DNA of 32,820 nucleotides from Anaerolineales bacterium (GCA_046260075.1 JBJYXS010000338.1:1-32820), one strand, 5' to 3'; counted from the first letter of the stretch, positions 1,499 to 27,202 are shown. Notes: generated by a model from the letters alone, not told the origin. Made by a program: numbers and translations.

Positions 1499-1671
1499 CG
1501 TTCTCCATCCTCCTGCAACGGCGGTCTGTGAAGGGCCGAAGACGCCGGAATCGCCGGCCGACCGGCTGTGGAAGAGTACAATACCGGTGTGCAAAGTGTA
1601 CCCTTAAAGTGCCGGGAACGAATCCAAAAAACCTCCATAGAACCTATACGGGGCCGGTGTTGACCGGAAAA

Positions 1672-2421
1672 ATGGCTGATCTGGAGCGGGAAATCGTCCG
1701 CTGCCGCCGCTGCCCGCGATTGGTGGAATGGCGCGAACAGGTGGGGCGCGAAAAGCGGCGCGCCTACCGCGCGGAGATATATTGGGCCCGGCCGCTTCCC
1801 GGTTTCGGCGACGAACGCGCTCGCGTGCTGGCTGTGGGGCTTGCGCCGGGAGCGCATGGATCGAATCGCACCGGGCGCATGTTCACCGGCGACGCATCCG
1901 GGGATTTCCTGTTCCCCGCTCTGTTTCGGGCCGGATTCTCATCCCGCCCGGAGTCCGTCGCGCGCGACGATGGGTTGGAGCTGCGCGGCCTGTTCATCAC
2001 CGCGGTGTGCCGTTGTGTTCCGCCGGGAAACAAACCCACTCCGGAGGAGATCCGCAATTGCCTTCCGTTCCTGGAAGAGGAAATCCGGTTGCTGGGCGGG
2101 TTGTGCGGGATAGTGGCGTTGGGGAAGATCGCCTATGATTCGTTGGGCCGTATGTATCCCGTAACGGAACCCGGTCTGTCGGGGATGAAAATCCGTCCGG
2201 ATGGATCCAAACGACGTTCTCCCTCCGGGCGTCCGGCATTTTCGCACGGCCGGCTTTGGAGGATCCGCCGGCCGGCGGAGGACGGCGGAGGACCGTCGTG
2301 GATCCTTGCTTCGTATCATCCCAGCCGGCAGAACACGCAGACCGGGCGGCTGACGCGGGCGATGTTCGACCGGATCTGGCGCACGGCTCGCGCTCTGGCG
2401 CGCACCGAGACGGGAGCGTGA
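1672..2421 (+). CDS. Uracil-DNA glycosylase, family 5 (UdgB-like) with an Fe-S cluster
   Basis: This is the ORF 1528..2421. I place the start at MADLEREIVRCRRCPRLVEW (ATG 1672), because the upstream 48 aa are Arg-rich junk. The motif VGLAPGAHGSNRTGRMFTGD matches the family-5 GLAPxxHGxNRTGR signature rather than the family-4 GEAPG signature. The N-terminal CxxC and later Cys residues fit the Fe-S UDG families. The C-terminal HPS region is present (ASYHPSRQN). Confidence 0.85.
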   Translation: MADLEREIVRCRRCPRLVEWREQVGREKRRAYRAEIYWARPLPGFGDERARVLAVGLAPGAHGSNRTGRMFTGDASGDFLFPALFRAGFSSRPESVARDDGLELRGLFITAVCRCVPPGNKPTPEEIRNCLPFLEEEIRLLGGLCGIVALGKIAYDSLGRMYPVTEPGLSGMKIRPDGSKRRSPSGRPAFSHGRLWRIRRPAEDGGGPSWILASYHPSRQNTQTGRLTRAMFDRIWRTARALARTETGA

Positions 2422-2446
2422 ACCCGTCCGATTCCGTTAATCAAAG

Positions 2447-5218
2447 TCAATCCATAATCGCCATGAAGGTTTCGGCGACCTGCGGATCGAAGTGCTTGCC
2501 GGATTGCGCGATGATGTACTCGCGCGCCTGCTCTTTCGTCCAGGCTTGGCGGTATGGACGGTCCGACGTCGTGGCGTCCCAGACGTCGACGACGGCGAAG
2601 ATCCTCGCCGCCAAGGGGATCTGTTCGCCCTTCAGACCGCGCGGATACCCCGTCCCGTCCCATTTCTCGTGGTGGCAATAGGGGATGTCGAGCGCTTGGC
2701 GGAGGTAGATGATCGGGGAGAGCATCTCGTAAGCGTACAGCGGGTGGCGGCGCATGATATCCCACTCTTCGTGGGTCAGGGCGTCGCGTTTGAGCAGGAT
2801 GCTGTCGGGGATGCCCATCTTCCCCATGTCGTGCAGCAGCGCGCCGCGGCGGATGTGGACGATATGCGATTCCTCGACTCCCATCGCGCGCGCCAACCGT
2901 TCGGTCATTTCGGTGACGCGTTCGGTGTGGCCTTCGGTGCCCTCGTCGCGCAGGTCGAGCGCCCGCGACCAGCCTTCGATCGTGGTGTCGTAGGCGAGAT
3001 TCAGCTCGGCGTTGGAACGCTGCAGGTCGTCGAAGAGCGCGGCATTATCGATGGCGATGGCGGCCTGGACCGTAAGGGATTCCAGGAAGTCGAACCAGTC
3101 CGCGTCCGCCGCCAGAGTCGTGCGGAAGAACACCTCCAGCACGCCCTTCACCTGTCCTTTGACGATCAGCGGCGCGGCGCAGTACGACTTGAACTTCTCG
3201 GAGGAGAATTTCGGCGAGCGGGCGAGGCTCCCCACGTCCACTTCCAGGTTCTGAATGAAGATCAGCCGCCGTTCATGCGCCGCCTGGCCGGCGTATCCTT
3301 CGCCCAGGCGCAGATGGGTGTGGTGCAGGGCGTCGGAACGGAAGCCCTTTCCGGCGACGAATTCCAGAAGCGTGGTCTTGGAATTCAGCAGTAAAACGTC
3401 CACCGCGTCCACGTTCGAACGCCGCGATACTTGGTCGAGCAGGATTTCCAGCGTGAAGTGCAGGTCCAGGCTGGAGCTGATGGTTATATCGATGTCGCGC
3501 AATGTCTGCAGCCGCTCGAGCCGGCGCTGGGTTTCGTCGTACAGGCGCAGGTTTTCCAGCATGGGAGCGACCTGGCTGCCGAGGGTGCGCAGCAACAGGA
3601 TGTCGGCGTGAGGGTAAAAATCGTCCGGATCGCGCCGCCCGAACAGCCAACCCCCGCGGGTTTTTCCGCGGGTTTTCAGGGCGTTGCCCAACCGGACCCT
3701 GGAGATGGGGGCGGCGGCGGCCCGGTCGGCCGGCCGGTACCGGCCGGCCGACCGGATCAACGTTTCCATTTCCCCGAATTCAAGGGGCTTTTCGGGGAGG
3801 TTGATTCCATCCGCGTAAAACAGCGCAAAACCGTTTTCCGTTTTCTGGTACAACGCCGATTCGCGGATCAACAGGCTGGGCGTCACGTCGCGGCCGAGCA
3901 GGCGGATCAGCAGCGCGGGTTCGAACGCCGCCGGCAGCTGCAGCGCGAAATCGCGGACGATATCCTGCGGATTGTGGCGGGCTCCGTAGGCCATGGTGTC
4001 GAACCATTGCTGGAAGCGGGCCCGCAGGCCCGGCGCGGCGATGACAAACACCAGCGTCACCAGCAGGCTGAAAGCCAGCGATTCGTCGGCGAGGCGCAGG
4101 GATTGGCTGGCGATGGAGAACACGAAGATGATCGCCAGGCTGTACAGCAGGATGAAGCTGTACAGGCTCAATGCCCGGTTGGCGCGGAATTCCAGACCGC
4201 CCAAATTGCGTTTATATATCGCATAAAAATAGAACGCCGGCAGTAAGGGGATGGCCAGATAGGTTGCGATCAGGGCCGTTTCGGGCGGGGGATTCCCGCG
4301 GGTCAAGGCCGGGGTGATCACGAACAGCAGGCCGGGCAGGAACGCCAATCCGATGCCGAGGAAAATCAACCGCAGCGCCAGCCGCTCCGGCGCGGTGAGA
4401 CGGGCCAACAGGCGATACATCAGCAGCCCCAGGCTGCCGAGGATGGCGATGATCAGGCCCAAATAAAACATCAGCCCGGGCAGTACTTGGAATATCTCGA
4501 GGACGCCGAGCGTCGCACCGGCGATGTAGAACAGGAGCAGGAAGGGCCGCCGTTGGGAGCGGAAAAGCGGGCTGGGGATTTCCAGGTGGAGGTGGATGTA
4601 GAGCGGCGCGATCAGCCAGGTCAGCATATGGATGATCAGGGACGAGTAGGGGACGAGCGACAGCGACATGCCGACCGCCAGATAGATTGCGGTGATGTAG
4701 TTGAAGATGACCAGCAGCAGCCACCGCCGGTCGCGCGGCCGGATGAGGATCAGCACGGCCGTTCCCGCCATCCAGAAGGGCAGATAGACCAATGCTTGGA
4801 TCAGGTTTTCGAACCGGTCGGAAAAAGTGGGATGGACGAGGATCCACTGCCCGGCGCTGGCGACGCCGTCGTGCAGGAAGGTTATGGTGGCCGAATCCCC
4901 CGGACGGTATCCGGTGAACGGGACAACATTGGGGTTCTGTAAATACTGCTCGAGCGTCATCCCGCCGACCGACAGCAATTGGTCGCCGACCTGCAACGTC
5001 GCTTCGTTTTCCAGGCACCATTGCAGTTGATTGTCCTTGTTGTTCTGGCAGTCGGCAAATCCCGTGACCGTCCAGTTCGCATCGTACTCGACGCCCGGAA
5101 TCGGGGAGAGGTACGTGGCGGCGACGGCGTAAAACAGGCAGATCAGCAACGCCAGGATCGACACCAGCAACAGGAATGCATCGACGAATTGCTGCAGGCC
5201 GGGTCTTTTATCATCCAT
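2447..5218 (-). CDS. Multi-pass membrane sensor with a PDZ-like extracytoplasmic segment, a GAF domain and a C-terminal HD-GYP domain (predicted c-di-GMP phosphodiesterase)
   Basis: 923-aa ORF. It has an N-terminal TM helix followed by LQVGDQLLSVGGMTLEQY...GDSATITFLHDG, which looks PDZ-like. About ten hydrophobic helices follow. The GAF-like block reads GEGYAGQAAHERRLIFIQNL...APLIVKGQVKGVLEVFF. The HD-GYP signatures are LLHDMGKMGIP and HHEKWDGTGYPRGL. Its ATG shares one base with the stop of the upstream gene (TGATG at 5216-5220). Confidence 0.9.
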   Translation of the reverse strand: MDDKRPGLQQFVDAFLLLVSILALLICLFYAVAATYLSPIPGVEYDANWTVTGFADCQNNKDNQLQWCLENEATLQVGDQLLSVGGMTLEQYLQNPNVVPFTGYRPGDSATITFLHDGVASAGQWILVHPTFSDRFENLIQALVYLPFWMAGTAVLILIRPRDRRWLLLVIFNYITAIYLAVGMSLSLVPYSSLIIHMLTWLIAPLYIHLHLEIPSPLFRSQRRPFLLLFYIAGATLGVLEIFQVLPGLMFYLGLIIAILGSLGLLMYRLLARLTAPERLALRLIFLGIGLAFLPGLLFVITPALTRGNPPPETALIATYLAIPLLPAFYFYAIYKRNLGGLEFRANRALSLYSFILLYSLAIIFVFSIASQSLRLADESLAFSLLVTLVFVIAAPGLRARFQQWFDTMAYGARHNPQDIVRDFALQLPAAFEPALLIRLLGRDVTPSLLIRESALYQKTENGFALFYADGINLPEKPLEFGEMETLIRSAGRYRPADRAAAAPISRVRLGNALKTRGKTRGGWLFGRRDPDDFYPHADILLLRTLGSQVAPMLENLRLYDETQRRLERLQTLRDIDITISSSLDLHFTLEILLDQVSRRSNVDAVDVLLLNSKTTLLEFVAGKGFRSDALHHTHLRLGEGYAGQAAHERRLIFIQNLEVDVGSLARSPKFSSEKFKSYCAAPLIVKGQVKGVLEVFFRTTLAADADWFDFLESLTVQAAIAIDNAALFDDLQRSNAELNLAYDTTIEGWSRALDLRDEGTEGHTERVTEMTERLARAMGVEESHIVHIRRGALLHDMGKMGIPDSILLKRDALTHEEWDIMRRHPLYAYEMLSPIIYLRQALDIPYCHHEKWDGTGYPRGLKGEQIPLAARIFAVVDVWDATTSDRPYRQAWTKEQAREYIIAQSGKHFDPQVAETFMAIMD

Positions 5219-6171
5219 CAGGCAACCGCAGTGATTTCCGGCGGAACCGGAATCCCAAGATTCTGCAATAGGTGCACCAATGGCACGATGTACTGATGGA
5301 TCACCGCGTGAAGCGGCGACGGATCGTCAAACGGCGTCTCTTTAAGGATCTTGCGCGCCTCCTGATAGCTTTGACACAATCGGTACATCGCATAGCTCAC
5401 GGCTCCGGAGCGGATCAGGATCTGCTGGGCGGATTTCAGGACGGCCGGATCGTCAACTTGAGTCCGGATGTCCCGAAACCGTTCCCGGTCGGGGTGGTCG
5501 GCGGTCAGTGCGTACAGGAACAACAGGTTGTTGCGTCCCTGTATCCAATCCGGATTGGCCGGAGTGTCAAGGGCGTCCTGGATGTCGTCGTGGATTTGGA
5601 TCGCGTCGCCGGTTATCGCCCCCAGCCGGCGGAGGCTCTCGATGGTTTTTTTCTTCGCCTTGCCGAGAATCCCGCCGATGTGCATGGCCGTGCCGAAATA
5701 CGAAGAGCTTTTCGCGTGGGTCACCTTCCAGTAATTCTCCTCGCCGGTGAGATTGCGCGCGTCGAGGTCCTGGCCGTAGGCCATGGTCAGCGCCATTTGC
5801 GCCAAGGCGTCCATCACCGCCGCCCGCCGGGCGGCGTCCACCGGGGCATTGGCGATGACGCGGAAGGCGATCGACTGGAAACCGAATGAGAGGTTGGCGG
5901 CCATGGCGTCGCCGATCTTGAGATGCTCCCCCCGCGGATCCTCATCCAGCATGTCGTCCACCAACAGGATGCTCAAGATCATGCACAGGATGGCGGCCGA
6001 TCCGGGAGCCACCGCCGATTCGTCGCCTCCCACCGCCCGGCAGGCGCGCAACGGCCATTCCCAAACCTGATGGGGCCGGGCGATATGCCGTTCGAAAATA
6101 TCCGCTATGGCCGGCCAGTCCGCCACTTCCGGCAGGTCCATGACCTGTTTCTTGACATCCTCTATATCCAT
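5218..6171 (-). CDS. Divergent polyprenyl-synthetase-fold protein. Candidate ComQ-like isoprenyl transferase by inference; otherwise a short-chain prenyl diphosphate synthase.
   Basis: 317-aa ORF. The first Asp-rich motif is LLVDDMLDEDPRG and the second is IQIHDDIQDAL. It also has AYGQDLD (GQxxD) and HAKSSSY (KT-like) blocks. The N-terminal GGKRxRP-type motif is degenerate (ERHIARP). GGAGGG lies 5 nt upstream of the ATG. The stop overlaps the start of the HD-GYP gene. Confidence 0.8.
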   Translation of the reverse strand: MDIEDVKKQVMDLPEVADWPAIADIFERHIARPHQVWEWPLRACRAVGGDESAVAPGSAAILCMILSILLVDDMLDEDPRGEHLKIGDAMAANLSFGFQSIAFRVIANAPVDAARRAAVMDALAQMALTMAYGQDLDARNLTGEENYWKVTHAKSSSYFGTAMHIGGILGKAKKKTIESLRRLGAITGDAIQIHDDIQDALDTPANPDWIQGRNNLLFLYALTADHPDRERFRDIRTQVDDPAVLKSAQQILIRSGAVSYAMYRLCQSYQEARKILKETPFDDPSPLHAVIHQYIVPLVHLLQNLGIPVPPEITAVA

Positions 6172-6245
6172 GGGTTCCCTCCGTCATAATTATGGTGAAA
6201 ACCGGCGATTTGGCAACAGGGAAAAACCGGCGGTCCGTTTAAAGT

Positions 6246-6275
6246 CCGTAGCGCGGAGAGCCGTCCGCGCTACGG
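6246..6275 (-). terminator. Perfect 12-bp GC-rich hairpin between the small ORF and the polyprenyl-synthase-like gene (candidate attenuator or partial terminator)
   Basis: CCGTAGCGCGGA (6246-6257) and TCCGCGCTACGG (6264-6275) are exact reverse complements around a 6-nt loop. On the minus strand the hairpin is followed by ACTTTAAAC and, about 20 nt later, by TTTTT. The U-tract is not canonical, so termination efficiency is uncertain. Confidence 0.4.
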
Positions 6276-6388
6276 TGAATTCCGCCTGGAAAGCGGCGCA
6301 TCCGGTGCTTTCTGCCGTCCCTGACCGTCGACCGGCCAAATCCCCCCTGGTCAGTCGCCTGATGCCGCAAGTTGTGATGGATTTGATC

Positions 6389-6532
6389 TCAGCGCCAGTA
6401 GTCCCAGCCGACCAGACTGGTGGCCTTCATTAATTCCTCTGGTTCCTCGATTTCGGTCAGGCCGAATAGCGCCTCAATTAAGGAGCTCTTTTCTTCCGAG
6501 CGCAGAAGGCTGTGGAATTTCTCAATGGACAT
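6389..6532 (-). CDS. Unannotated 47-aa acidic peptide with a Trp-rich C-terminus (candidate pheromone or RiPP precursor)
   Basis: Below the size cut-off of the ORF track. My translation is MSIEKFHSLLRSEEKSSLIEALFGLTEIEEPEELMKATSLVGWDYWR followed by a stop. AAGAGGAGG precedes the ATG, with a 6-nt spacer (GTTCGC). It sits in a 670-bp stretch with no other credible gene, on the same strand as and directly upstream of the polyprenyl-synthase-like gene. There is no independent conservation evidence. Confidence 0.55.
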   Translation of the reverse strand: MSIEKFHSLLRSEEKSSLIEALFGLTEIEEPEELMKATSLVGWDYWR

Positions 6533-6842
6533 GCGAACCCTCCTCTTTAAGCGTGTACAGGACGTGCTCTCTTTGGGCTTTACGGTCGATCCCGGACAGG
6601 ACGGAAGCGGGATATGGCTCGTTTACCCGCATGGGTTAATTATATGTCAATAATGAAAAAAGGCCACTTGACTTTCGGGGGAGGGGAGGGTGGAATAGCA
6701 GCGATTGGCGGCTTGCCGTCGTATGATGAAGCCTTACGAAGGTCACCCGCATAATCCGTGAAGGCTTGGGAAACCGGATTTCGCTGTTCCGCGGATGGCC
6801 GGTCTCGCAGCCCGGCTCCTCTGCGGGAGCGAGATGGAGATA

Positions 6843-7589
6843 TTACCCGGAATCCGCCTCGGCCAACAGATCGCGGGATCGTTCCAGCGGCCGGCCGTCG
6901 ATCGCCCGCACCCGGTATCCGAAGGAATCCAACAGCTCCAGACATTCCCGGTGGACGTTCCCGGAATGGGTGGAGAGAAAGATGGGCGGGCGCCGGCCGG
7001 CGAGGATCCGTCGGGCTCCCCGCAGCGCCAGGGCTTCGGCGCCCTCGATGTCGATTTTCAGCAGGTCCGGCGCGGGCGCGTCTTCCTGTTCCATCCACTC
7101 GTCTACTGCGACGGCGCGCACCTCCAGCGTCCCCTGTCCGCCGATCCGGCCCCGGGATGTGCTGGAATCCGGCTCGAAACGAATCGTCCCGCTCCGTTCG
7201 GCGACCGCCGCTTCGATCACGGTTGCGTTTTCGATCCGGTTTAGCTTCAGATGCCTTCGAAGGAAACCCGCGTTGCGGGGCAGCGGCTCAAAGGCGAACA
7301 CCCGCCCTGCGGCGCCGGCGGCGAAGGAGGAGATCAGCGTGTAATACCCGACGTTGGCTCCCAGGTCGTACACTACTCCGCCGGAGGGAACGGATGCGGC
7401 GAACAGGGCGGTTTTTCCTATTTCGTAACTTCCCAGCCAGTATCCGTGATTGCCGGATCCGACGATCCATTTCCTTCCCCGCACGGGGCCCTGCAGAATG
7501 GGCAGCACGGTCTGGGGCGGTATAAGCCTTAAGGGAAAGCGCAGGATTCTTCCGATCAGCGAGGCGTTGGAAATTCCGGTCCAGTTCAT
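6843..7589 (-). CDS. FkbM-family SAM-dependent methyltransferase
   Basis: 248-aa ORF with VYDLGANVGYYTL (SAM-binding loop), FAFEP and LLKIDIEGAE blocks, all typical of the FkbM family. AAGGAA lies 4 nt upstream of the ATG. Confidence 0.9.
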   Translation of the reverse strand: MNWTGISNASLIGRILRFPLRLIPPQTVLPILQGPVRGRKWIVGSGNHGYWLGSYEIGKTALFAASVPSGGVVYDLGANVGYYTLISSFAAGAAGRVFAFEPLPRNAGFLRRHLKLNRIENATVIEAAVAERSGTIRFEPDSSTSRGRIGGQGTLEVRAVAVDEWMEQEDAPAPDLLKIDIEGAEALALRGARRILAGRRPPIFLSTHSGNVHRECLELLDSFGYRVRAIDGRPLERSRDLLAEADSG

Positions 7590-7667
7590 ATCGTTCCTTG
7601 GATTCGTGCCGGCCGCGGCTGCGGGAGAATACCCGCCGGCCGGATCATTGGGAGCGACGCCGGCTCC

Positions 7668-8420
7668 TTATCCGGGCACGAGGATGTCTTGCAGGAAAAC
7701 CGCGACATCCTGCGCGCCGGTTTCGTCGGAAGCGTGAGCGGGGATCCGGTGGAAGGATTCCCTGCGCAGGATGACGTCCCGCAGCGGCACGGGATGCCCG
7801 GCCTCGGCCGACGCGCGGCGGACGAAGAGTGCTCTCTGGGTGCGGTGGCACGCCATCGCCGCCAACTTGCGGTCGAATACGGAATTAACGGGAACGATGA
7901 AATCCGCCGGATCGTCCCGGTTGGCCGACCGCTTGCGCGGGTGATCGTCGTAATCCGCGTTGAAGGAATACAGGAAAGGGATGCCGCCAAGCTGCGCCGC
8001 TTGGCATCCGGCACGGTGGGTCAGAAGGTGGGCCGGATGCCCGTACTCGCCGTTGGATCCGTGGGTGATCAGGACGTCGATCCCCATCGGGCTGAGACGG
8101 CGGAGGATTTCCGGGAGGATTTCCCGGGGCGAAGCGGCAAAGGGGTGCAATGCCCCGTCCGGTCCGACGTCCGGATCGCGGAACGGCAGGCAGTCCGCCG
8201 AAACGCAACCGAGGGCGCGAGCGGCGCAGCGCAGCTCGGCTTCACGGAAGTCGCCCAATTCCGCCCGCGGGCAGAGCGGCGGCTCCCCCGCCTCGCCTCC
8301 CTCGCCGCGGGTGCAACACAGGATCCTCACCTCGGCGCCGCGTTCGGCCAGCAGCGCCAGCGTCCCGCCGGCGAAAACCGTTTCGTCGTCGGGATGCGCG
8401 ACAAGGCAAAGGATCCTCAC
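7668..8420 (-). CDS. PIG-L/LmbE-family N-acetylglucosaminyl deacetylase
   Basis: Contains ILCLVAHPDDE and GHPAH motifs. The track ORF extends to the ATG at 8552. That extension adds a 44-aa Arg/Pro/Ser-rich tail and overlaps the upstream gene by 50 bp. I prefer the GTG at 8420 (VRILCLVAHPDDE), but the start is uncertain. Confidence 0.8.
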   Translation of the reverse strand: MRILCLVAHPDDETVFAGGTLALLAERGAEVRILCCTRGEGGEAGEPPLCPRAELGDFREAELRCAARALGCVSADCLPFRDPDVGPDGALHPFAASPREILPEILRRLSPMGIDVLITHGSNGEYGHPAHLLTHRAGCQAAQLGGIPFLYSFNADYDDHPRKRSANRDDPADFIVPVNSVFDRKLAAMACHRTQRALFVRRASAEAGHPVPLRDVILRRESFHRIPAHASDETGAQDVAVFLQDILVPG

Positions 8421-10521: not shown

Positions 10522-10552
10522 CCATACACCGATGCCGATTCACCCTCTCGAT

Positions 10553-10590
10553 CCTCCCCCGCAATCCGCATGGGCGGAGAACGGGGGAGG
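10553..10590. repeat. Homopyrimidine/homopurine palindromic hairpin, copy iv
   Basis: The outer stem pairs CCTCCCCCG (10553-10561) with CGGGGGAGG (10582-10590). The inner stem pairs TCCGC (10565-10569) with GCGGA (10574-10578). It lies 14 nt beyond the ahcY stop codon. Confidence 0.6.
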
Positions 10591-10603
10591 GCAGGGGAGG
10601 GGG

Positions 10604-11977
<1,374 letters not shown>

Positions 11978-12934
11978 TTAGGACAGAATTTTTTCGGCTG
12001 TTGTGTCTTTTCCGAAGGTTTCCGTATACCGCGCGAGGAATTCCGCCCGCGAGTAGGTATGGTTTTGGGTTCCCACCTCCTCAAGGCAATACGTGGCCGC
12101 CAGTGCGCCGAGTTGGCCGCAGAGAGGCCAGGAGGCATTGTGCAACAAACCCTTGAGCAATCCGCCGCGGAAAGCATCGCCCACGCCGGTCGGATCGGCC
12201 ACGCGCCGCGGCGCGACGATCGGTATCTCGAAGGTCTCCTTTTCGGTTTTGATCCGCGATCCCTTTTCGCCGAGGGTGACGATCACGACCGGGACGGTTT
12301 GCTCGAGCTCCGCCTCGCTGCGGCCGGTCTTGCGGGCGATGAGTCCGAATTCATATTCGTTGCAAATCAGGATCCGGCAGGCGTCGATTCCGACCGCGAT
12401 GTCCGGTCCGTCCATCCGGGCCGCCTGCTGGGAGGGATCGTATATCAGGGCCAAACCGAGTTCCCGGCACTCGCGGGCGTGCTTGACCATGGCGGCGGGA
12501 TCGTTGGGCGAGATCACCACCCAATCCGGCCGCGGCTCCACGCCGTGCAGGGAGAGTTCGGCGGCCCGGGCCATCGCCCCGGGGTAGAACGAAGCCAGTT
12601 GGCAGTTTGCCTTGTCGGTGGTGGCGAAGAACGAACCGGTATAGCAATCATCGTATGGAACGGTCAGCGAGGTGTCGACCCCCGCGGATTCGAGCGCCGT
12701 CCGGTATTCGCCGAAATCCTTGCCCACGGTGGCCATCAGCCGCGGCTGCTCGCCGAGCAGCGCCAGCGTGTAGGCGATATTTCCGGCGATCCCGCCGCGG
12801 TGCCGGGCCAGGCTGTCCACCAGAAACGACAGGCTGAGCGATTCCAATTTTTCGGGGAGGATCTGTTCGCGAAAGAGGCCCGGAAAGGTCATCAGGCAAT
12901 CGAAGGCGATGGATCCGGTGAGGACAACGTTCAT
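11978..12934 (-). CDS. PfkB-family carbohydrate/nucleoside kinase (probable adenosine kinase)
   Basis: The real gene is the C-terminal 318 aa of the 788-aa track ORF. It starts at MNVVLTGSIAFDCLM (ATG 12934), with GGAGAG 4 nt upstream. It carries the motifs HRGGIAGNIAY, ICNEYEF and DPTGVGDAFRGG (PfkB signature 2). Its position directly upstream of ahcY fits adenosine salvage. Confidence 0.88.
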   Translation of the reverse strand: MNVVLTGSIAFDCLMTFPGLFREQILPEKLESLSLSFLVDSLARHRGGIAGNIAYTLALLGEQPRLMATVGKDFGEYRTALESAGVDTSLTVPYDDCYTGSFFATTDKANCQLASFYPGAMARAAELSLHGVEPRPDWVVISPNDPAAMVKHARECRELGLALIYDPSQQAARMDGPDIAVGIDACRILICNEYEFGLIARKTGRSEAELEQTVPVVIVTLGEKGSRIKTEKETFEIPIVAPRRVADPTGVGDAFRGGLLKGLLHNASWPLCGQLGALAATYCLEEVGTQNHTYSRAEFLARYTETFGKDTTAEKILS

Positions 12935-13039
12935 GATCTCTCCAGTAAAAAAACGCTCCCTTCGCGAGAGCGCAGCCGGTGTATGGTAACATGCGCAGGC
13001 GGCTTTGTCAAAAAAGCGGGCCGCGGTTATCCTTTGGAT

Positions 13040-15430
13040 ATGCATCTTCTCCGCCGGATTCCGATCCCCATCCTGCTGGCGCTCACGGCCTGCACGCTTC
13101 CCGCCGGCGGGCCGCCGGCTACGCTTACGCCTTCCCCCTTTCCCGCCGCCACGAACGCCGGCGTGCCGCCTTCGCCGGCCGTGATTCCGACGGCGACATC
13201 CGCCGCAAGCGATTTCCTCGTCCTCGGCGACCGGGCATTGCTCAACGGGGACTATCCCACGGCGATCGCGCAGTACAATGCGGCGCTTGCGGCGGGGGCG
13301 GAAGGGGAGCGCGCGGCCTTTTTCCTCGCGCGGGCGATGTGGGAATCGGGGGATCCCGCCGGGGCGCAGGCCATGCTGGACAGCCTGGCGGCGACGGCTC
13401 CGGCGGGGCCGTACGTTTCGCGCGTCCGTTTCCTGCAGGGGGAGATCGCCGCCGCACAGGGGGATTGGGCGGGTTCGGTCGCGGCCTACCAGCAATTCCT
13501 CGCTTTGGCTCCCGGTCTTCTCAACGACATCGTCCAGGAACGGGTCGGCGATTCCTCGCTCGCGGGCGGCTGGACGGATCAGGCGGTGCAGGCCTACGCC
13601 GCCGCCGCCGAAGCCGCCGCGCCCGGGGCGAGGATCTGGCTGTGGGAAAAACAGGCCGATGCGCTTTCCGGCGCGCGCCTGGCGGAGCCGGCGATCGCCC
13701 TCTACGAGCAGGTGCTGGCGGCGACGTCGAACGATTACGCGAGGGCGCGGCTGAACCGCAAGATCGGGGGGGCGCTCATCGCCCTGGGGCGGGCGGAAGA
13801 AGGGTATGCCCGCTATCAGACCGCCCTGCAATATCCCATGTCGCACGACGCCTTCCTGTGCCTTTCGGAGTTGCTGTATGCCGGGTATGCGGTCGACAAC
13901 CTGACGCGGGGGATCATCGATTATTACGAGGGGGTGTACGACACGACCCTGGTGGTCCTCAGCGATTACCTGGCTCAAAACCCCGCCGAACCGGCCAAGG
14001 CGCACTATTTCCGCGGTCTGGCTGCGCGGGCCGGCGGCGCGGCGGCGGAAGCGGCGGGCGATTTCGAAACCGCGGTCGCGCTCGGGACGGAGACCGGTTT
14101 TTGGGATGCCGCCCTGTTCGAATGGGCGTACACGCTCTGGGCGTGGCTCGACGATTACGCCGGCGCCTCCGCGATCCTGGTCGGATTGGCGGACGCGGCG
14201 CCGGCCCATCCGCGCGCGCCGGAGGCGCTCTACACGGCCGCCCGGATCTCCGAGCGCGGCGGCGACCTGGTTTTGGCGGCCCAGTTGTGGTTGCGCACGG
14301 CCGCGGATTACCCGGCCGATTCGGGGGCCGCGGAGTCGCGCCATCAGGCCGGCGTCGCGCTCTACCGCGCGGGCGATTACGCCGGCGCAGAGGACGCCTG
14401 GTCGGCGGGCCTTTCCTCCGGCGACGGGTGGGCCCGATCGCGGGCTCTGTTCTGGACCGCCAAGGCCCGCGGGCAGCGCGGCGATGCCGGCGCCGCCCGC
14501 ACGTTCCTAGAGCAGGCCGCCGCCGCTTCGCCGACCGATTATTATTCCGAACGGGCCGCCGATGTGCTCGAAGGGATGGCGGCCTTCACCCGCGTGAGGG
14601 ATATCAATATTTCGTTCGATTCGGATGCGGAATTCCTGCAGGCCGAAGCCTGGGTGCAATCGGTCTTTGCGTCGGAAGCGGCGATGGAGCAGCGCTACGC
14701 CGCCGTGCAGAATGATCCCCGCCTGCAGCGCGGGCGGATCCTGTGGGATCTCGGCCTGTACGACGATGCGCGCGCGGAGTTCGACGGCCTGTGGTACTCC
14801 GCAGCGGGCGACCCGGCCGGTTCGCTGTACCTGAGCCGTTATTTCCAGACGATCGGATACTACCCGGGAGCGATCCAGGCTGCGCGCAAGGTGCTCGATG
14901 CGGCCGGGTTCAACGACGCCCAGACTCTCGCCGCGCCGGCGTACTTCAGCCACATCCGGTTCGGACCGCACTTCGCCGATCTCATCGTCCCGCAGGCCGC
15001 CGCGCGCGGGCTCGATCCGCTGCTCCTGTTCGCGCTGGTGCGCCAGGAATCGCTCTTCGGCGTGTCGGCCGCATCCGCCGCCAACGCCCACGGCTTGATG
15101 CAGCTGATCCCCTCGACCGCCGAGGCGATGGCGGCCCAATTGGGGTTGGGTTCGCTGGGGATCGCCGATCTCTACCGGCCCATCATCAACGTTCAACTCG
15201 GCGCGGAGTACATCGCCCGGCAGCGCGATACGTTCGGCGGGAATCTCTTCCTGGCCTTGGCGGCCTACAACGCCGGACCGGGAAGCGCCGCGTTCTGGAA
15301 CGACCTGGCCGGCGGCGACGACGACTTATTGGTGGAGGTGATCCGCTACGAGGAAACCAGAAATTACGTGCGGCGGATTTATGAGAATTATGTCATCTAC
15401 AGGGATTTGTATCAGGTGGTGCAGGGATGA
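13040..15430 (+). CDS. Lipoprotein with TPR-like helical repeats and a C-terminal Slt-type lytic transglycosylase domain
   Basis: The real gene is the last 796 aa of the 1632-aa track ORF. It starts at MHLLRRIPIPILLALTACTLP, a signal peptide with a lipobox. The SLT catalytic region reads ALVRQESLFGVSAASAANAHGLMQLIPSTA...AAYNAGPGSA. Confidence 0.9.
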   Translation: MHLLRRIPIPILLALTACTLPAGGPPATLTPSPFPAATNAGVPPSPAVIPTATSAASDFLVLGDRALLNGDYPTAIAQYNAALAAGAEGERAAFFLARAMWESGDPAGAQAMLDSLAATAPAGPYVSRVRFLQGEIAAAQGDWAGSVAAYQQFLALAPGLLNDIVQERVGDSSLAGGWTDQAVQAYAAAAEAAAPGARIWLWEKQADALSGARLAEPAIALYEQVLAATSNDYARARLNRKIGGALIALGRAEEGYARYQTALQYPMSHDAFLCLSELLYAGYAVDNLTRGIIDYYEGVYDTTLVVLSDYLAQNPAEPAKAHYFRGLAARAGGAAAEAAGDFETAVALGTETGFWDAALFEWAYTLWAWLDDYAGASAILVGLADAAPAHPRAPEALYTAARISERGGDLVLAAQLWLRTAADYPADSGAAESRHQAGVALYRAGDYAGAEDAWSAGLSSGDGWARSRALFWTAKARGQRGDAGAARTFLEQAAAASPTDYYSERAADVLEGMAAFTRVRDINISFDSDAEFLQAEAWVQSVFASEAAMEQRYAAVQNDPRLQRGRILWDLGLYDDARAEFDGLWYSAAGDPAGSLYLSRYFQTIGYYPGAIQAARKVLDAAGFNDAQTLAAPAYFSHIRFGPHFADLIVPQAAARGLDPLLLFALVRQESLFGVSAASAANAHGLMQLIPSTAEAMAAQLGLGSLGIADLYRPIINVQLGAEYIARQRDTFGGNLFLALAAYNAGPGSAAFWNDLAGGDDDLLVEVIRYEETRNYVRRIYENYVIYRDLYQVVQG

Positions 15431-25193: not shown

Positions 25194-26009
25194 TCAATTT
25201 TTATGGCGGTAGAAACCTGTCATCCGCATACCCGTCCGTTCGGATTCTGATCCGGCGCGAGCCGCCACATCCCGCCAGTAGGCGGAATCCGCAGCGCAGT
25301 GTTTGGCGGTTTCGGCGACCGACGGGTCGCGACGGGCGATCGCTTCCAGGGTCCGATTCCAGCTGCCCGCTGCCGTATTGATGGCCTCCACGGCAAAGGA
25401 GTCGGTGATGCCGTACAGCGCGTCGACGATCCGGCGGATGTCGGATAGACCGGGTATGTACGGGCTGATAAAGGCATAGGTGCGGATTCCGCGTTCGCGC
25501 AATGCCGCGAGTGCGGCCAGCCGCCGGGAAGGCGGCGCGGCGCGGGGTTCCAGCAGTTGCGCCCAGCCGTCGTCTGTTGTCCCAAGGCTGAGGCCGACGG
25601 TGGCGGCGGGCGCACACCCCAGCAGATCCGCATCCCGCAGCACCAAATCGGATTTGGTCAGGATTTCGACCGGCACCCCGTGCCGCGCCAATACTTCCAA
25701 TATCTTTCTTGTCAATCCGATCGTCCGTTCCGGCGGCTGGTAGGGATCGGTCACGCTGGAGAGCAACACGCACTCCGTCAGCGGCCGGCGCCGCCGCGTC
25801 AGCTGCCGTTCGAGGAGCTGGGGGGCGTTCGACTTGGCGTCGAGGAAGGATCCCCACGGTTCGGGATGATCGGTGAACCGTTTCATGAAGGCGGCATAGC
25901 AGTAGACGCAGCCGTGCACGCAGCCGGTGTACGGGTTGATCACATACTCGATGCCGGGCAGGCGGCTTTTTTGGAGGATGCCCTTGGCTTGGATTTCGCG
26001 AATGCCCAT
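25194..26009 (-). CDS. Radical SAM protein, SplB/COG1533-like (DNA-repair-photolyase-type family)
   Basis: The start is set at MGIREIQAKGIL (ATG 26009). The CxxxCxxC motif is in NPYTGCVHGCVYCYA. The overall length and the LLSSVTDPYQP block fit the COG1533 family as I remember it. Confidence 0.82.
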   Translation of the reverse strand: MGIREIQAKGILQKSRLPGIEYVINPYTGCVHGCVYCYAAFMKRFTDHPEPWGSFLDAKSNAPQLLERQLTRRRRPLTECVLLSSVTDPYQPPERTIGLTRKILEVLARHGVPVEILTKSDLVLRDADLLGCAPAATVGLSLGTTDDGWAQLLEPRAAPPSRRLAALAALRERGIRTYAFISPYIPGLSDIRRIVDALYGITDSFAVEAINTAAGSWNRTLEAIARRDPSVAETAKHCAADSAYWRDVAARAGSESERTGMRMTGFYRHKN

Positions 26010-26024
26010 TGATGAACCCTGTCT

Positions 26025-26066
26025 GTGATTGCGAGTGGATGGAAGACGGCGGATTTTCGTATGCGG
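26025..26066. repeat. Degenerate partial copy (c) of the GTCATTGCGAGG-family element
   Basis: GTGATTGCGAGTGGATGGAAGACGGCGGATTTTCG shares ATTGCGAG and the 10-mer GAAGACGGCG with copy b. It is intergenic, between the radical SAM start and the GH18 stop. Confidence 0.35.
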
Positions 26067-26116
26067 TTTGAGCGGATATTCCGGAGGGGTGGATCGTCCT
26101 TCCGCGGAGATCTTTC

Positions 26117-27202
26117 CTACGGCGGACAGCCGTTCGCCAAGGCCGAATATACGGCCCGCAACAGCGAGGCATCGTCCGCGCTGTCCTGGCCAAGTTCCCA
26201 CATCATGATTCCCCCGAAGCCGTAGTTTTTCGCATAACATACTTTCTTCTGAACGGTGGCGATTCCATTAAAGAAGATGTCTTCCACTTCGTCCGTTTCC
26301 GGCGGCGGTTCGAACGTTTTCCGGATATCGGAATACGGATAACCGGTGAACGGGCTGGACATCTTCCGGCCGTAGAACGGAATGCCCAATACCAATTGGG
26401 ATCGTGCATATCCGGCCCGAAGAAATACTCCCAGATCGGAGATAGCCTGCTCGTAGGTCGAGTGGCGCGGTCCGTTGTCGTACGACATCACATGAATGCG
26501 GTCGATTCCCTGGTATGGGGCAAGGTCTATCCCGGGAAGCGGGATGATGGCGACGCTGGCGGTCAGCCCGGCCTGCTGGACGGCTTCGATGAGGGAAACG
26601 TATCCGCTGATTTCCGACGGGCTTTGCGGAAATTCCCAGTCGAAATCGAAGCCGTCGAGGTCGTTGGCGGCCGCGAATGTCATCAGCTCGTCGAAGAACC
26701 TTTGCCGCTGCAGCGGGTGGGAGACCGCCTTGGCGAAGTTTTCCGACCGGCCATATCCGCCTACCGAGACGTGCAGTCGCGTTCCGTAGCGGATTTTCAT
26801 TTCCCGCATGCGGTCCAACGTGAGCGGATCCAGCCGGCTGGTGTCCAGTGAGCCGTTCGGATCGGGTTCTGCGGAAAAATAAATGAAGTCGGAAAGGCAA
26901 TTGCCCCAGGACGGTTCGAGCAACCGGTATTCCGGCAGATACCCGGCCACGAGAAATCCATCCGGCAATCCGCCGGGGGGCGAGCACCATCCCTCCGGAG
27001 CCGGGGACGGGGACGCGTCGGCTGTCGCGGTGGGGCTGGCCGTGAAGATACGGGAGGCGGTGTGCGTCATTGGCGGCCCGGTGCTTTCCGCAACCAGGGG
27101 CGACGGCTGGGTTTGCGGAGCGCAGGCTGCAGCCAACCACGGTACGACCGCGAGAATGCCCCAACGGAAGGAAGGCTTTCCCAAGCTGTGACGGAGTGAC
27201 AT
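26117..27202 (-). CDS. Glycoside hydrolase family 18 (chitinase-like) lipoprotein
   Basis: The start is set at MSLRHSLGKPSFRWGILAVVPWLAAACAP, which carries a lipobox. The catalytic motif is LDGFDFDWEF (DxxDxDxE). It also has MSYD and GGIMMWELGQD blocks. Confidence 0.85.
   Translation of the reverse strand: MSLRHSLGKPSFRWGILAVVPWLAAACAPQTQPSPLVAESTGPPMTHTASRIFTASPTATADASPSPAPEGWCSPPGGLPDGFLVAGYLPEYRLLEPSWGNCLSDFIYFSAEPDPNGSLDTSRLDPLTLDRMREMKIRYGTRLHVSVGGYGRSENFAKAVSHPLQRQRFFDELMTFAAANDLDGFDFDWEFPQSPSEISGYVSLIEAVQQAGLTASVAIIPLPGIDLAPYQGIDRIHVMSYDNGPRHSTYEQAISDLGVFLRAGYARSQLVLGIPFYGRKMSSPFTGYPYSDIRKTFEPPPETDEVEDIFFNGIATVQKKVCYAKNYGFGGIMMWELGQDSADDASLLRAVYSALANGCPP

Follow-up and report, generated by a model that had tools for sequence, protein, structure and literature searches.

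We analysed a window of 32,820 nucleotides from an Anaerolineales bacterium (GCA_046260075.1 JBJYXS010000338.1:1-32820), in which three genes for a small peptide, a prenyl-synthase-like enzyme and a membrane receptor follow one another on the minus strand from 6532 to 2447 (Table 1). In the terms of ComQXPA (ComX pheromone, ComQ Trp prenyltransferase, ComP sensor kinase, ComA regulator) their order is X-Q-P. The receptor ATG shares one base with the enzyme TGA (TGATG), and this overlap, the three genes, the hairpin and both Shine-Dalgarno sites are all present, which confirms the first-pass annotation at its coordinates.

Table 1. Features of the cassette, in the order of transcription (positions in the window).
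Feature	Position	Strand	Basis
Shine-Dalgarno GGAGG, six nt 5' of peptide ATG	6539..6543	-	direct sequence reading
Precursor peptide gene, 47 aa	6389..6532	-	ORF call and jackhmmer homologues
Perfect 12-bp hairpin, 6-nt loop, between peptide and enzyme genes	6246..6275	-	sequence
Sigma-70-like promoter match TTGCCA-16-CATAAT, 5' of enzyme gene	6189..6216	-	motif scan
Shine-Dalgarno GGAGGG, five nt 5' of enzyme ATG	6177..6182	-	direct sequence reading
317-aa trans-prenyl-synthase-fold enzyme	5218..6171	-	ORF; Pfam PF00348, E 7e-19
923-aa receptor gene	2447..5218	-	ORF and Pfam
Sensor membrane module, residues 1-400, 10 TM helices	4019..5218	-	hydropathy, AF2, hhalign
Extracytoplasmic PDZ-like domain, residues 38-131, TM1-TM2 loop	4826..5107	-	AF2, Foldseek, ComP counterpart
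Cytoplasmic GAF-like domain, residues 410-560	3539..3991	-	Foldseek GAF matches, TMt <=0.69
GAF domain, residues 585-724	3047..3466	-	Pfam GAF_2, E 7.6e-13
HD-GYP phosphodiesterase domain, residues 752-914	2477..2965	-	Pfam HD_5, E 1.1e-40

The peptide has the sequence MSIEKFHSLLRSEEKSSLIEALFGLTEIEEPEELMKATSLVGWDYWR, with 10 acidic and 5 basic residues. Alignment with its relatives divides it into a leader of about residues 1-37, in which F6 is invariant and L22 conserved, and a hypervariable core, ...SLVGW43DYW46R, in which W43 is invariant and W46 occurs in at least 90% of relatives; the family pattern is F..L.S...L..AL in the leader and W-x-x-W in the core. Of 81 related loci, 75 encode a homologous small peptide beside the enzyme gene (jackhmmer), and W-x-x-W is found in 90 of 96 family peptides versus 1.9% of the other small ORFs of the same loci, so that the layout exceeds chance. 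The small ORF proposed by the first-pass annotation is thus a member of a peptide family kept across two phyla, Chloroflexota and Acidobacteriota. The peptide had no match in Pfam or NCBIfam, including the ComX family PF05952. Acidobacterial members extend 10-20 residues beyond W-x-x-W and consequently recognition of a free C-terminus is not general.

The arms of the hairpin that follows the peptide gene occupy 6275..6264 and 6257..6246. Hairpins stand at the equivalent position in related loci, with the arms CGTAGCGCGG/CCGCGCTACG in L001 and L005-L008, a 15-bp stem of changed sequence followed by TTTTTT in L002, and a 15-bp stem of unrelated sequence in L003. As no T-run follows the 12-bp hairpin of the present cassette, it probably acts as a partial terminator or as a stem that stabilises the mRNA, and would in this way set the ratio of peptide to enzyme. 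In a promoter scan over 2300-7000 the sole match was TTGCCA-16-CATAAT, and because 0.9 matches are expected by chance this site is weak evidence for a candidate promoter of the enzyme gene. The first-pass annotation does not mention the site.

The first Asp-rich motif (FARM) of the enzyme, DDMLDEDPRG at D72-G81, has the pattern D72 D73 xx D76 x D78, and the second (SARM), DDIQD at D195-D199, is a canonical DDxxD preceded by Q192. WEWP, in the family WE[WL]P, stands where GGKRxRP is expected, and motif alignment reveals that the GK motif after the SARM is deleted and that one Arg of RRG is retained. Since the canonical DDxxD and this Arg are kept, unlike in ComQ and StheQ, the enzyme may still hold a diphosphate-binding acceptor site. 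Its AF2 model (pLDDT 93.9) matches isoprenyl diphosphate synthases in Foldseek with TM scores of 0.75-0.81 and the indole prenyltransferase Ord1 with 0.70, the top matches being true synthases and Ord1 only the 31st. JGI labels homologues of the enzyme as geranylgeranyl pyrophosphate synthase.

Against NCBIfam equivalogs, whose cut-offs are 275-600 bits, the enzyme scores at most 76 bits, and its identity to solved synthases does not exceed 25%. At E<=1e-30 its family is discrete and counts about 180 50%-identity clusters, with a patchy, lineage-restricted distribution. Profile comparison with ComQ by hhalign, a check that the first-pass annotation had proposed, was favourable (95% probability, E 2.8e-8, 234-235 columns); the match to E. 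coli IspA is shorter, at 155 columns, and by score the enzyme is about equally close to ComQ (64) and IspA (57). Taken together, the low NCBIfam scores, low identity, discrete family and ComQ match distinguish the enzyme from housekeeping GGPP/FPP synthases. Both the enzyme and real ComQ sequences are without the GGKRxRP IPP-site motif and the GK after the SARM, whereas their SARMs differ, with DDxxD here, xGDYY in ComQ and NDxxD in StheQ. The earlier view that VDDMLDEDPRG is nearer to ComQ than to the canonical motif holds in part, but type-I GGPP synthases have a closely similar motif, DDVMDEAQVRRG. Four trans-IDS-like enzymes, ComQ, PalQ, StheQ and the P domain of ChrPC, prenylate a Trp of a neighbouring small peptide (PMC10853753, PMC13290415, StheQ preprint), and a Gln together with the first SARM residue has been implicated in positioning this Trp (PMC13290415; StheQ preprint, bioRxiv 10.64898/2026.08.29.745113). 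The counterpart of these two residues is Q192-x-x-D195. We regard the 317-aa protein as a putative ComQ analogue, a peptide Trp prenyltransferase.

Loop charges place both ends of the receptor's sensor module inside (positive-inside rule), and AF2 models the module with a pLDDT of 84.5 and a pTM of 0.81. The PDZ-like domain in its first outside loop is acidic, has conserved C57 and C68, and consists in the model of 5 strands and 2 helices. Its PDZ match by sequence is sub-threshold (E about 0.1) and its Foldseek matches to the DegS/DegQ PDZ are weak (E about 0.1); ComP has a Pfam-significant PDZ in the equivalent place. Published work on ComP (PMC9620489) describes 10 TM helices with a PDZ within the first outside loop, followed by a cytoplasmic domain and then the output. 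Receptor and ComP align in hhalign with E 4e-14 over the full alignment and 1.3e-5 for the N-terminus alone, and the sensor module is colinear with the ComP N-terminus at a score of 50.7, against 18-28 when the controls are block-shuffled or reversed; composition can raise the similarity of membrane domains, but these controls speak against such an effect here. With its 10 TM helices, the PDZ-like loop between TM1 and TM2 and the GAF-like domain on the cytoplasmic side, the sensor module has the ComP architecture. This GAF-like domain is part of the conserved module, and in the L020 receptor the equivalent region has a Pfam GAF_3 match. The HD-GYP domain has intact motifs, LLHDMGK and HHEKWDGTGYP (HHExxDGxGYP), aligns with the solved HD-GYP enzyme 4mcw (E 4e-46) and also resembles the cGAMP-specific HD-GYP enzyme 5z7c (E 2e-40).

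The linkage of peptide, enzyme and receptor that the first-pass annotation had suggested looking for in related genomes is kept, with the receptor module adjoining the enzyme in 66 of 78 loci and the two genes overlapping or 0-9 nt apart in most Chloroflexota loci. Of 56 relatives, 45 have the sensor module fused to a histidine kinase, HisKA_3 kinases being among the outputs, and 11 to GAF+HD-GYP, as in the present receptor. Additionally, 21 loci have NarL/ComA-type regulators adjoining the cassette, and 20 acidobacterial loci have REC-EAL regulators there. The outputs of the sensor module are interchangeable, and HD-GYP is one among several. Evolution is fastest in the outside loop (37-41% identity versus 82-92% for enzyme and output domains); for example, the PDZ-like domain is 37-41% identical to that of relatives whose enzyme is 82-85% identical. 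Together with the divergent peptide core this looks pherotype-like, and we propose the PDZ-like domain as the determinant of ligand specificity. Neither a protease nor an exporter gene is conserved around the cassette in the relatives. The FkbM, PIG-L and YbjN genes, already thought to lie outside the unit, accompany the cassette in its closest relatives only and were directly observed beside it in the loci L001 and L002. A Pyr4-type terpene cyclase is encoded a few genes upstream of the cassette in seven close relatives; such a gene is absent from the present window.

This comparative evidence on peptide family, enzyme and receptor module backs the first-pass reading of a ComX/ComQ/ComP-like signalling cassette with a c-di-GMP output. 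We give a probability of about 0.65 to the cassette being a peptide-pheromone signalling unit of this type, for which we infer prenylation, secretion and c-di-GMP hydrolysis from sequence. The precursor would be translated from a strongly initiated small gene, and the hairpin 3' of it probably lets the peptide message exceed that of enzyme and receptor. The FARM would bind an allylic prenyl diphosphate (C10-C20) and, because the IPP site is lost, the prenyl group would be moved to the indole of W43, which is invariant and opens the W-x-x-W motif, and possibly to W46 too. Leader removal and exit of the lipidated C-terminal peptide may rely on factors encoded outside the cassette, as for ComX in Bacillus, which is secreted though export genes are unlinked. 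The ComP-like sensor would recognise the peptide, probably by the PDZ-like domain and the 10-helix bundle, and relay the signal via the GAF-like and GAF domains to HD-GYP, whose hydrolysis of c-di-GMP or a related cyclic dinucleotide would be altered directly, without phosphorelay.

Several other explanations share parts of this evidence. The modified peptide could mainly be a RiPP product, a membrane-active or antimicrobial lipopeptide, with a membrane protein that autoregulates or gives immunity, as in the nisin-NisK model, and no cell-density signal. A precursor made of leader and hypervariable core agrees with this, as do the Pyr4-type cyclase upstream in seven close relatives, with FkbM and PIG-L beside it in L001 and L002, and the membrane activity of which prenylated Trp peptides are capable (PMC13290415). 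We nevertheless think it unlikely, given that genes for transport, proteolysis or immunity are not conserved alongside the unit and that the one partner linked to it universally is a sensor coupled to signalling outputs. The tailoring-like upstream genes, moreover, do not extend past the closest relatives, and the window has no cyclase gene. Slightly less credible is a small isoprenoid product (an unusual prenyl diphosphate, an Ord1-like prenylated indole or a terpene) sensed by the receptor, the small protein being a regulator, chaperone or scaffold. Beyond F6 that protein is invariant only at the Trp of its C-terminal W-x-x-W, the expectation for a Trp-prenyltransferase substrate, and its core is hypervariable like those of pheromone precursors; the enzyme has lost its IPP-binding motif, and the adjacent peptide is the substrate in four characterised precedents. 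These points stand against an intact FARM and SARM, the one RRG Arg, and nearest solved structures that are true synthases, with the free-indole prenyltransferase Ord1 matched too.

To a similarly small degree we credit a prenylated peptide that stays lipid-anchored in the producer membrane and acts in cis on the 10-TM protein as co-factor or tethered ligand, a private switch with no quorum sensing. Export and processing genes unlinked to the cassette, the long tails of acidobacterial peptides past the Trp motif and the translational coupling of enzyme and receptor genes would suit such a switch, but the fast evolution of the extracytoplasmic loop fits an external ligand and pherotype diversification, and ComX is also without linked export genes yet secreted. 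That the 317-aa protein is an ordinary GGPP/FPP synthase among coincidental neighbours, as the JGI label and the PF00348 match would have it, is highly improbable for a protein that misses all NCBIfam equivalog cut-offs by far, has neither IPP-site nor GK motifs, is restricted and patchy in distribution, and is linked near-universally to a W-x-x-W peptide and a sensor in two phyla.

We found no published description of this large Chloroflexota and Acidobacteriota cassette family. Read as a pheromone unit, it resembles ComQXPA in the conserved Trp near the C-terminus of a small precursor, an IPPS-fold enzyme without IPP-site and GK motifs, the profile match being significant, a sensor that combines 10 TM helices with a PDZ within the first outside loop and a linker domain in the cytoplasm, three adjacent genes on one strand, and a sensor loop and peptide core that diverge fastest; relatives of the cassette even carry HisKA_3 kinases and NarL-type regulators. 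In contrast to Bacillus, the order is X-Q-P rather than Q-X-P, the peptide, with its W-x-x-W core, is unrelated in sequence to ComX, and the hosts are Chloroflexota and Acidobacteriota instead of Firmicutes. GAF+HD-GYP takes the place of the kinase, and phosphorelay and ComA are consequently absent here.

Outside Firmicutes, the published system closest to the cassette is StheQ/StheX of Sphaerobacter thermophilus (2026 preprint, bioRxiv 10.64898/2026.08.29.745113), a Chloroflexi ComQ-like IPPS-fold enzyme with an adjacent Trp-tailed small peptide that is prenylated in vitro on its penultimate residue, a Trp. W46 is also second from the C-terminus, and the present enzyme shares with StheQ as described the FARM pattern D-[DE]-x-x-D-x-D and a Gln three residues before the second motif. 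StheX differs in its 69 aa, its WW-x ending and its position downstream of its enzyme, and StheQ in a pseudo-SARM, NDxxD; neither a receptor nor a biological role is reported for the pair (bioRxiv 10.64898/2026.08.29.745113). PalP/PalX/PalQ of Paenibacillus alvei is likewise a three-gene cluster, of histidine kinase, precursor and isoprenoid-synthase-superfamily Trp prenyltransferase, but the leader of PalX is of the NHLP type and its Trp strictly C-terminal, PalQ is terpene-synthase-like and falls in a separate sequence cluster, and the output of PalP is a kinase (PMC10853753). With membrane-bound HD-GYP c-di-GMP phosphodiesterases and RpfC/RpfG the receptor shares an HD-GYP with intact catalytic motifs. 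RpfG couples a cell-cell signal to c-di-GMP hydrolysis. The Rpf (DSF) signal is a fatty acid, whereas a prenylated peptide is presumed here, and the Rpf HD-GYP is a separate response regulator phosphorylated by RpfC, whereas in the present cassette sensor and HD-GYP form one polypeptide.

The three minus-strand ORFs claimed by the first-pass annotation, encoding a putative peptide precursor, a putative Trp prenyltransferase and a receptor, were recovered as stated from an ORF reading of the window, and their positions are listed below with the associated signals.

Features of the cassette in the window
Feature	Position	Strand	Detail or basis
Peptide ORF, 47 aa	6532..6389	-	C-terminus SLVGWDYWR
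Enzyme ORF, 317 aa	6171..5218	-	ORF reading and Pfam
Receptor ORF, 923 aa	5218..2447	-	ATG uses the A of the enzyme's TGA
GGAGG	six nt 5' of peptide ATG	-	direct reading
GGAGGG	five nt 5' of enzyme ATG	-	direct reading
Perfect 12-bp hairpin	6275..6246	-	between peptide and enzyme genes
Promoter-like TTGCCA-16-CATAAT	6216..6189	-	promoter scan

The intergenic hairpin is also found in relatives, with the version at the related locus L002 having an altered sequence and a T-run behind it. No RNA family was matched when the entire window was scanned with Rfam, and thus the hairpin does not correspond to a known riboswitch or attenuator. A TTGACA/TATAAT pair at 6650..6639, 5' of the peptide gene, was rejected as a promoter since its two elements lack a spacer and the promoter scan did not call it; consequently, no promoter is assigned to the peptide gene.

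Databases hold more than 1000 relatives of the enzyme, all about 316 aa in length and mostly from Anaerolineae MAGs. Three loci with enzymes that are 82%, 68% and 51% identical to that of the window have the order small ORF, enzyme and GAF/HD-GYP protein. A scan of one genome per species identified an enzyme relative in 160 species and returned 80 loci, distributed within the Chloroflexota among Anaerolineales, Caldilineae, Ardenticatenaceae and Promineifilaceae, and within the Acidobacteriota among Thermoanaerobaculia and Holophagales. The pairing of enzyme and receptor noted in the window extends well beyond this genome, as the receptor module (residues 1-560) adjoins the enzyme gene in 66 of 78 loci. 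The small ORF, which had been proposed as part of the unit, is likewise conserved, with an iterative profile search seeded with the window's 47-aa peptide finding a homologous small ORF in 75 of 81 loci. In at least three of the six peptide-less loci (L011, L015 and L030) the enzyme gene has scant or zero upstream sequence. The enzyme gene additionally occurs in L029, L061 and L065, which come from MAGs assigned to Promethearchaeota, Patescibacteria and Truepera, respectively. The first two contain the peptide and the receptor module as well, neither of which was detected in L065. These three contigs are probably mis-binned, or else the genes have moved horizontally.

The enzyme gene thus has beside it the gene of a small peptide whose Trp near the C-terminus is conserved, as is the case with ComQ-type prenyltransferases of InterPro IPR033965. 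The peptide ORF lies upstream of the enzyme in 74 of 96 cases, at a median distance of 114 nt, and in Acidobacteria the enzyme is followed by a second copy. Alignment of the peptides shows an invariant F6 and a conserved L22 in the leader, and in the core an invariant W43 with W46 present in at least 90% of sequences. The resulting W-x-x-W motif occurs in 90/96 peptides versus 1.9% of other small ORFs from the same loci, and is followed mostly by 0-3 residues in the Chloroflexota peptides listed and mostly by about 10-20 in acidobacterial ones. Scans of the 47-aa peptide against Pfam (E<=5) and NCBIfam (E<=0.01) returned zero matches, so any likeness of its leader to Nif11 or NHLP leaders stays an impression. 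Specifically, the ComX family PF05952 does not match the window peptide even at E<=5, with real ComX scoring E 3e-7. In a number of acidobacterial loci (L031, L033, L034, L037, L039, L043-L060, L073 and L077) paralogous W-x-x-W precursor genes flank the enzyme gene, one on each side (for example, L031 7642-7833 and 9257-9451), with 10-20 residues after a motif that often reads W-x-x-W-P. These same loci have a hybrid histidine kinase and a REC+EAL regulator directly upstream.

A housekeeping GGPP synthase is an alternative identity for the enzyme, and its fold is what such a synthase would have. The protein matches the Pfam family polyprenyl_synt (PF00348, E 7e-19), its AF2 model (pLDDT 93.9) has the all-alpha trans-isoprenyl diphosphate synthase fold, and Foldseek places the model at TM 0.75-0.81 to Rv0562 and archaeal GGPP synthases, with the indole prenyltransferase Ord1 ranking 31st at TM 0.70. 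This identity was rejected on motifs, scores and distribution. The enzyme is at most 25% identical to any solved synthase, and all 13 NCBIfam synthase matches fall far under their cut-offs of 275-600, with the best equivalog (IdsA) scoring 76 bits against a cut-off of 468. When 1.84 billion representatives were searched exhaustively, a discrete enzyme family of ~180 representatives emerged at E<=1e-30, so that the enzyme does not cluster with housekeeping synthases, in agreement with the first-pass annotation, which had read it as a peptide-modifying enzyme. A plasmid search with the enzyme gave zero matches.

An alignment of the enzyme family with real ComQ proteins and E. coli IspA locates the motif differences. 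The first Asp-rich motif (FARM), D72 D73 M L D76 E D78, is invariant across the family and aligns with DDLEDED of ComQ. Lys and Arg of the GGKRxRP motif hold the IPP diphosphate in FPP synthases, and this motif is absent from both the enzyme family and ComQ, with WEWP standing in its place in the window enzyme. Compared with E. coli IspA, the RRG after the FARM has become PRG in the window enzyme, which keeps one Arg. A 6-residue deletion after the second Asp-rich motif (SARM) removes the GK motif, and ComQ has the identical deletion. WE[WL]P and PANPDW are found family-wide. The SARM itself, DDIQD (D195, D196 and D199), is invariant in 70 family members with no pseudo-SARM degeneration. The second motif of StheQ and ComQ is described as an NDxxx pseudo-SARM (bioRxiv 10.64898/2026.08.29.745113); that of B. 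subtilis 168 ComQ reads xGDYY. Lacking the pseudo-SARM, the enzyme would by this motif stand outside a strictly defined ComQ family, and retention of the canonical motif makes it look like an evolutionary intermediate leading from synthases to ComQ. Profile comparisons give the family the same intermediate appearance, as hhalign scores 64 against ComQ (E 2.8e-8, 234-235 columns) and 57 against IspA (155 columns), with ComQ against IspA scoring 27 (143 columns). Two studies implicate a Gln just before the SARM and the first SARM residue in the placement of the Trp indole in Ord1, PalQ, ChrPC and StheQ (PMC13290415; bioRxiv 10.64898/2026.08.29.745113), and the window counterparts are Q192 and D195. 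We infer that the enzyme would transfer a geranyl or farnesyl group to the indole of the peptide Trp.

Hydropathy, loop charges and the AF2 model (pLDDT 84.5, pTM 0.81) give the receptor 10 TM helices with both termini inside. The outside loop between TM1 and TM2 is acidic, spans 106 residues (33-138 by hydropathy) with conserved C57 and C68, and has in the AF2 model a folded core (residues 38-131) of five strands and two helices. PDZ matches of this loop are sub-threshold by sequence, and Foldseek finds weak likeness to two PDZ domains that bind peptides, those of DegS and DegQ. On the basis of the modelled topology together with these weak but consistent matches, the loop may be described as PDZ-like; in Bacillus ComP, Pfam assigns a significant PDZ to the corresponding position. 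Residues of about 410-560 form a cytoplasmic GAF-like domain. ComP has been modelled as a protein of ten TM helices whose first outside loop holds a PDZ and in which a cytoplasmic 'Part 1' precedes the kinase (PMC9620489), a plan that the window receptor fits in TM count, orientation, PDZ-like first loop and a cytoplasmic linker domain ahead of the output. Since the full-length hhalign match to ComP (98%, E 4e-14) may contain kinase columns, the comparison was redone on N-terminal regions alone against three ComP sequences. This gave a colinear match over 417 columns (probability 81%, E 1.3e-5, score 50.7) versus scores of 18-28 for reversed and block-shuffled controls.

Identity between the window and four relatives (L005-L008) was also assessed part by part. 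The receptor GAF domain is 91-92% identical, the HD-GYP domain 87-88%, the enzyme 82-85% and TM2-10 70-75%, with the outside PDZ-like loop at 37-41%. The peptide cores vary as well (GWDYWR, GWGYWA, GWGYWM and GWGKWG). Such divergence of sensor loop and peptide core is known from ComP/ComX pherotypes. The low loop identity and differing cores point to the outside loop as a candidate ligand-specificity determinant.

Pfam finds no HisKA_3 plus HATPase_c output in the window receptor, which instead has a GAF domain at 585-724 and an HD_5/HD-GYP domain at 752-914 (PF13487, E 1.1e-40). The HD and HHExxDGxGYP motifs are conserved in an alignment with the solved enzyme 4mcw (E 4e-46), and the next-best solved match is the 3'3'-cGAMP-specific enzyme 5z7c (E 2e-40). 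The domain would presumably hydrolyse c-di-GMP. Among 56 complete module-bearing proteins, 45 have histidine kinase outputs (38 HisKA and 4 HisKA_3, with 19 hybrids carrying a receiver domain) and 11 have GAF+HD-GYP like the window. A REC+GerE regulator of NarL/ComA type is added in 21 loci, and a REC+EAL protein in 20 acidobacterial loci. A tie to c-di-GMP degradation is therefore seen twice, by different enzymes. Signalling genes also lie directly upstream of the peptide gene in several Chloroflexota loci (L003 1-5290, L023 1835-5599, L024 3682-7443 and L026 3676-7440), comprising a second large HD-GYP protein or extra multi-domain kinase and receiver genes. Some 1 kb upstream of degQ-comQ, the Bacillus comQXPA loci L087-L090 have an EAL+HDOD gene (for example, L088 2726-3955), a proximity to the ComX system that is either coincidental or meaningful.

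The FkbM, PIG-L and YbjN genes, which had been left outside the unit, do lie outside it, for they stand beside it in L001 and L002 and do not recur in the rest of the family. They were rejected as members together with a Pyr4-like gene, all being confined to the closest relatives. The latter encodes a Pyr4-TMTC-like membrane terpene cyclase (208 aa, PF25129) between PIG-L and FkbM (L001 3943-4569 and L002 2188-2814). Homologues are found in seven close relatives in all (also L005-L008 and L012), 5' of the enzyme on the same strand. The gene is absent from the window, where 78 nt alone separate the PIG-L and FkbM genes (7589-7668). A terpene cyclase near a prenyltransferase could, by analogy, cyclise the prenyl group, as a review describes for the C domain of ChrPC (PMC13290415). 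A uracil-DNA-glycosylase-family gene (window 1528-2421, plus strand) is convergent with the receptor gene, and its presence as the same neighbour in L002 makes it synteny of related genomes and not part of the unit. The window further encodes a 1632-aa TPR plus lytic-transglycosylase protein (10532-15430, plus strand), a radical SAM protein (25194-26240, minus strand) and an ABC exporter (27423-29363, plus strand), none of which is found again beside the cassette in relatives. The exporter was weighed as a candidate for exporting the peptide, a role that linkage does not support.

Anatomy, homology and synteny define a real cassette, and in silico evidence supports its interpretation as a pheromone cassette. 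In the proposed mechanism the enzyme would prenylate the invariant Trp of the precursor, and the peptide would be trimmed and exported by factors unlinked to the cassette. The lipopeptide would then be sensed outside the cell by the ComP-like module, with the signal reaching the HD-GYP domain via the GAF-like and GAF domains and changing cyclic-dinucleotide hydrolysis. We put at about one in two the probability that these loci represent a phylum-spanning family of prenylated-peptide pheromones in Chloroflexota and Acidobacteriota, kin to ComQXP and built around a plug-in ComP-like sensor that in this Anaerolineales lineage is wired directly to c-di-GMP degradation. If true, this would be the first time that a lipidated peptide pheromone is seen to act on a second messenger with no phosphorelay in between, and Anaerolineae would gain their first defined quorum-sensing system. 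The cassette is widespread in Anaerolineae and Thermoanaerobaculia, which are abundant and largely uncultured in soil, sediment and wastewater. Because the signal would connect to c-di-GMP turnover by two independent routes, one the fused HD-GYP domain and the other an acidobacterial REC-EAL partner, we predict peptide-dependent control of a biofilm/motile switch. The enzyme family may additionally be a new source of Trp-lipidating biocatalysts, and the sensor, as a swappable module, could serve as a part in synthetic signalling circuits.

To our knowledge, Trp-prenylated peptide pheromones were for long regarded as restricted to Bacillus and a small number of other Firmicutes, and a cited census of ComQXPA covers Firmicutes alone. 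Literature searches that paired ComQ with HD-GYP, or ComQXPA with Chloroflexi, turned up no account of this family or of a version coupled to HD-GYP, and a search of ComQ with Acidobacteria and Chloroflexota class names gave no ComQ paper in the top 15. Two related systems have been published. In Paenibacillus, the PalPXQ cluster combines a kinase, a peptide and a prenyltransferase (PMC10853753), and StheQ/StheX is a Chloroflexi pair from Sphaerobacter thermophilus, reported in August 2026, in which the Trp second from the C-terminus is prenylated (bioRxiv 10.64898/2026.08.29.745113). By the preprint's description StheQ has a pseudo-SARM and is reported with no receptor or role; in contrast, the window cassette provides the putative receptor that is missing from that report. 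The cassette is best filed as a variant of the ComQXP kind, with a peptide that by sequence is not of the ComX family.
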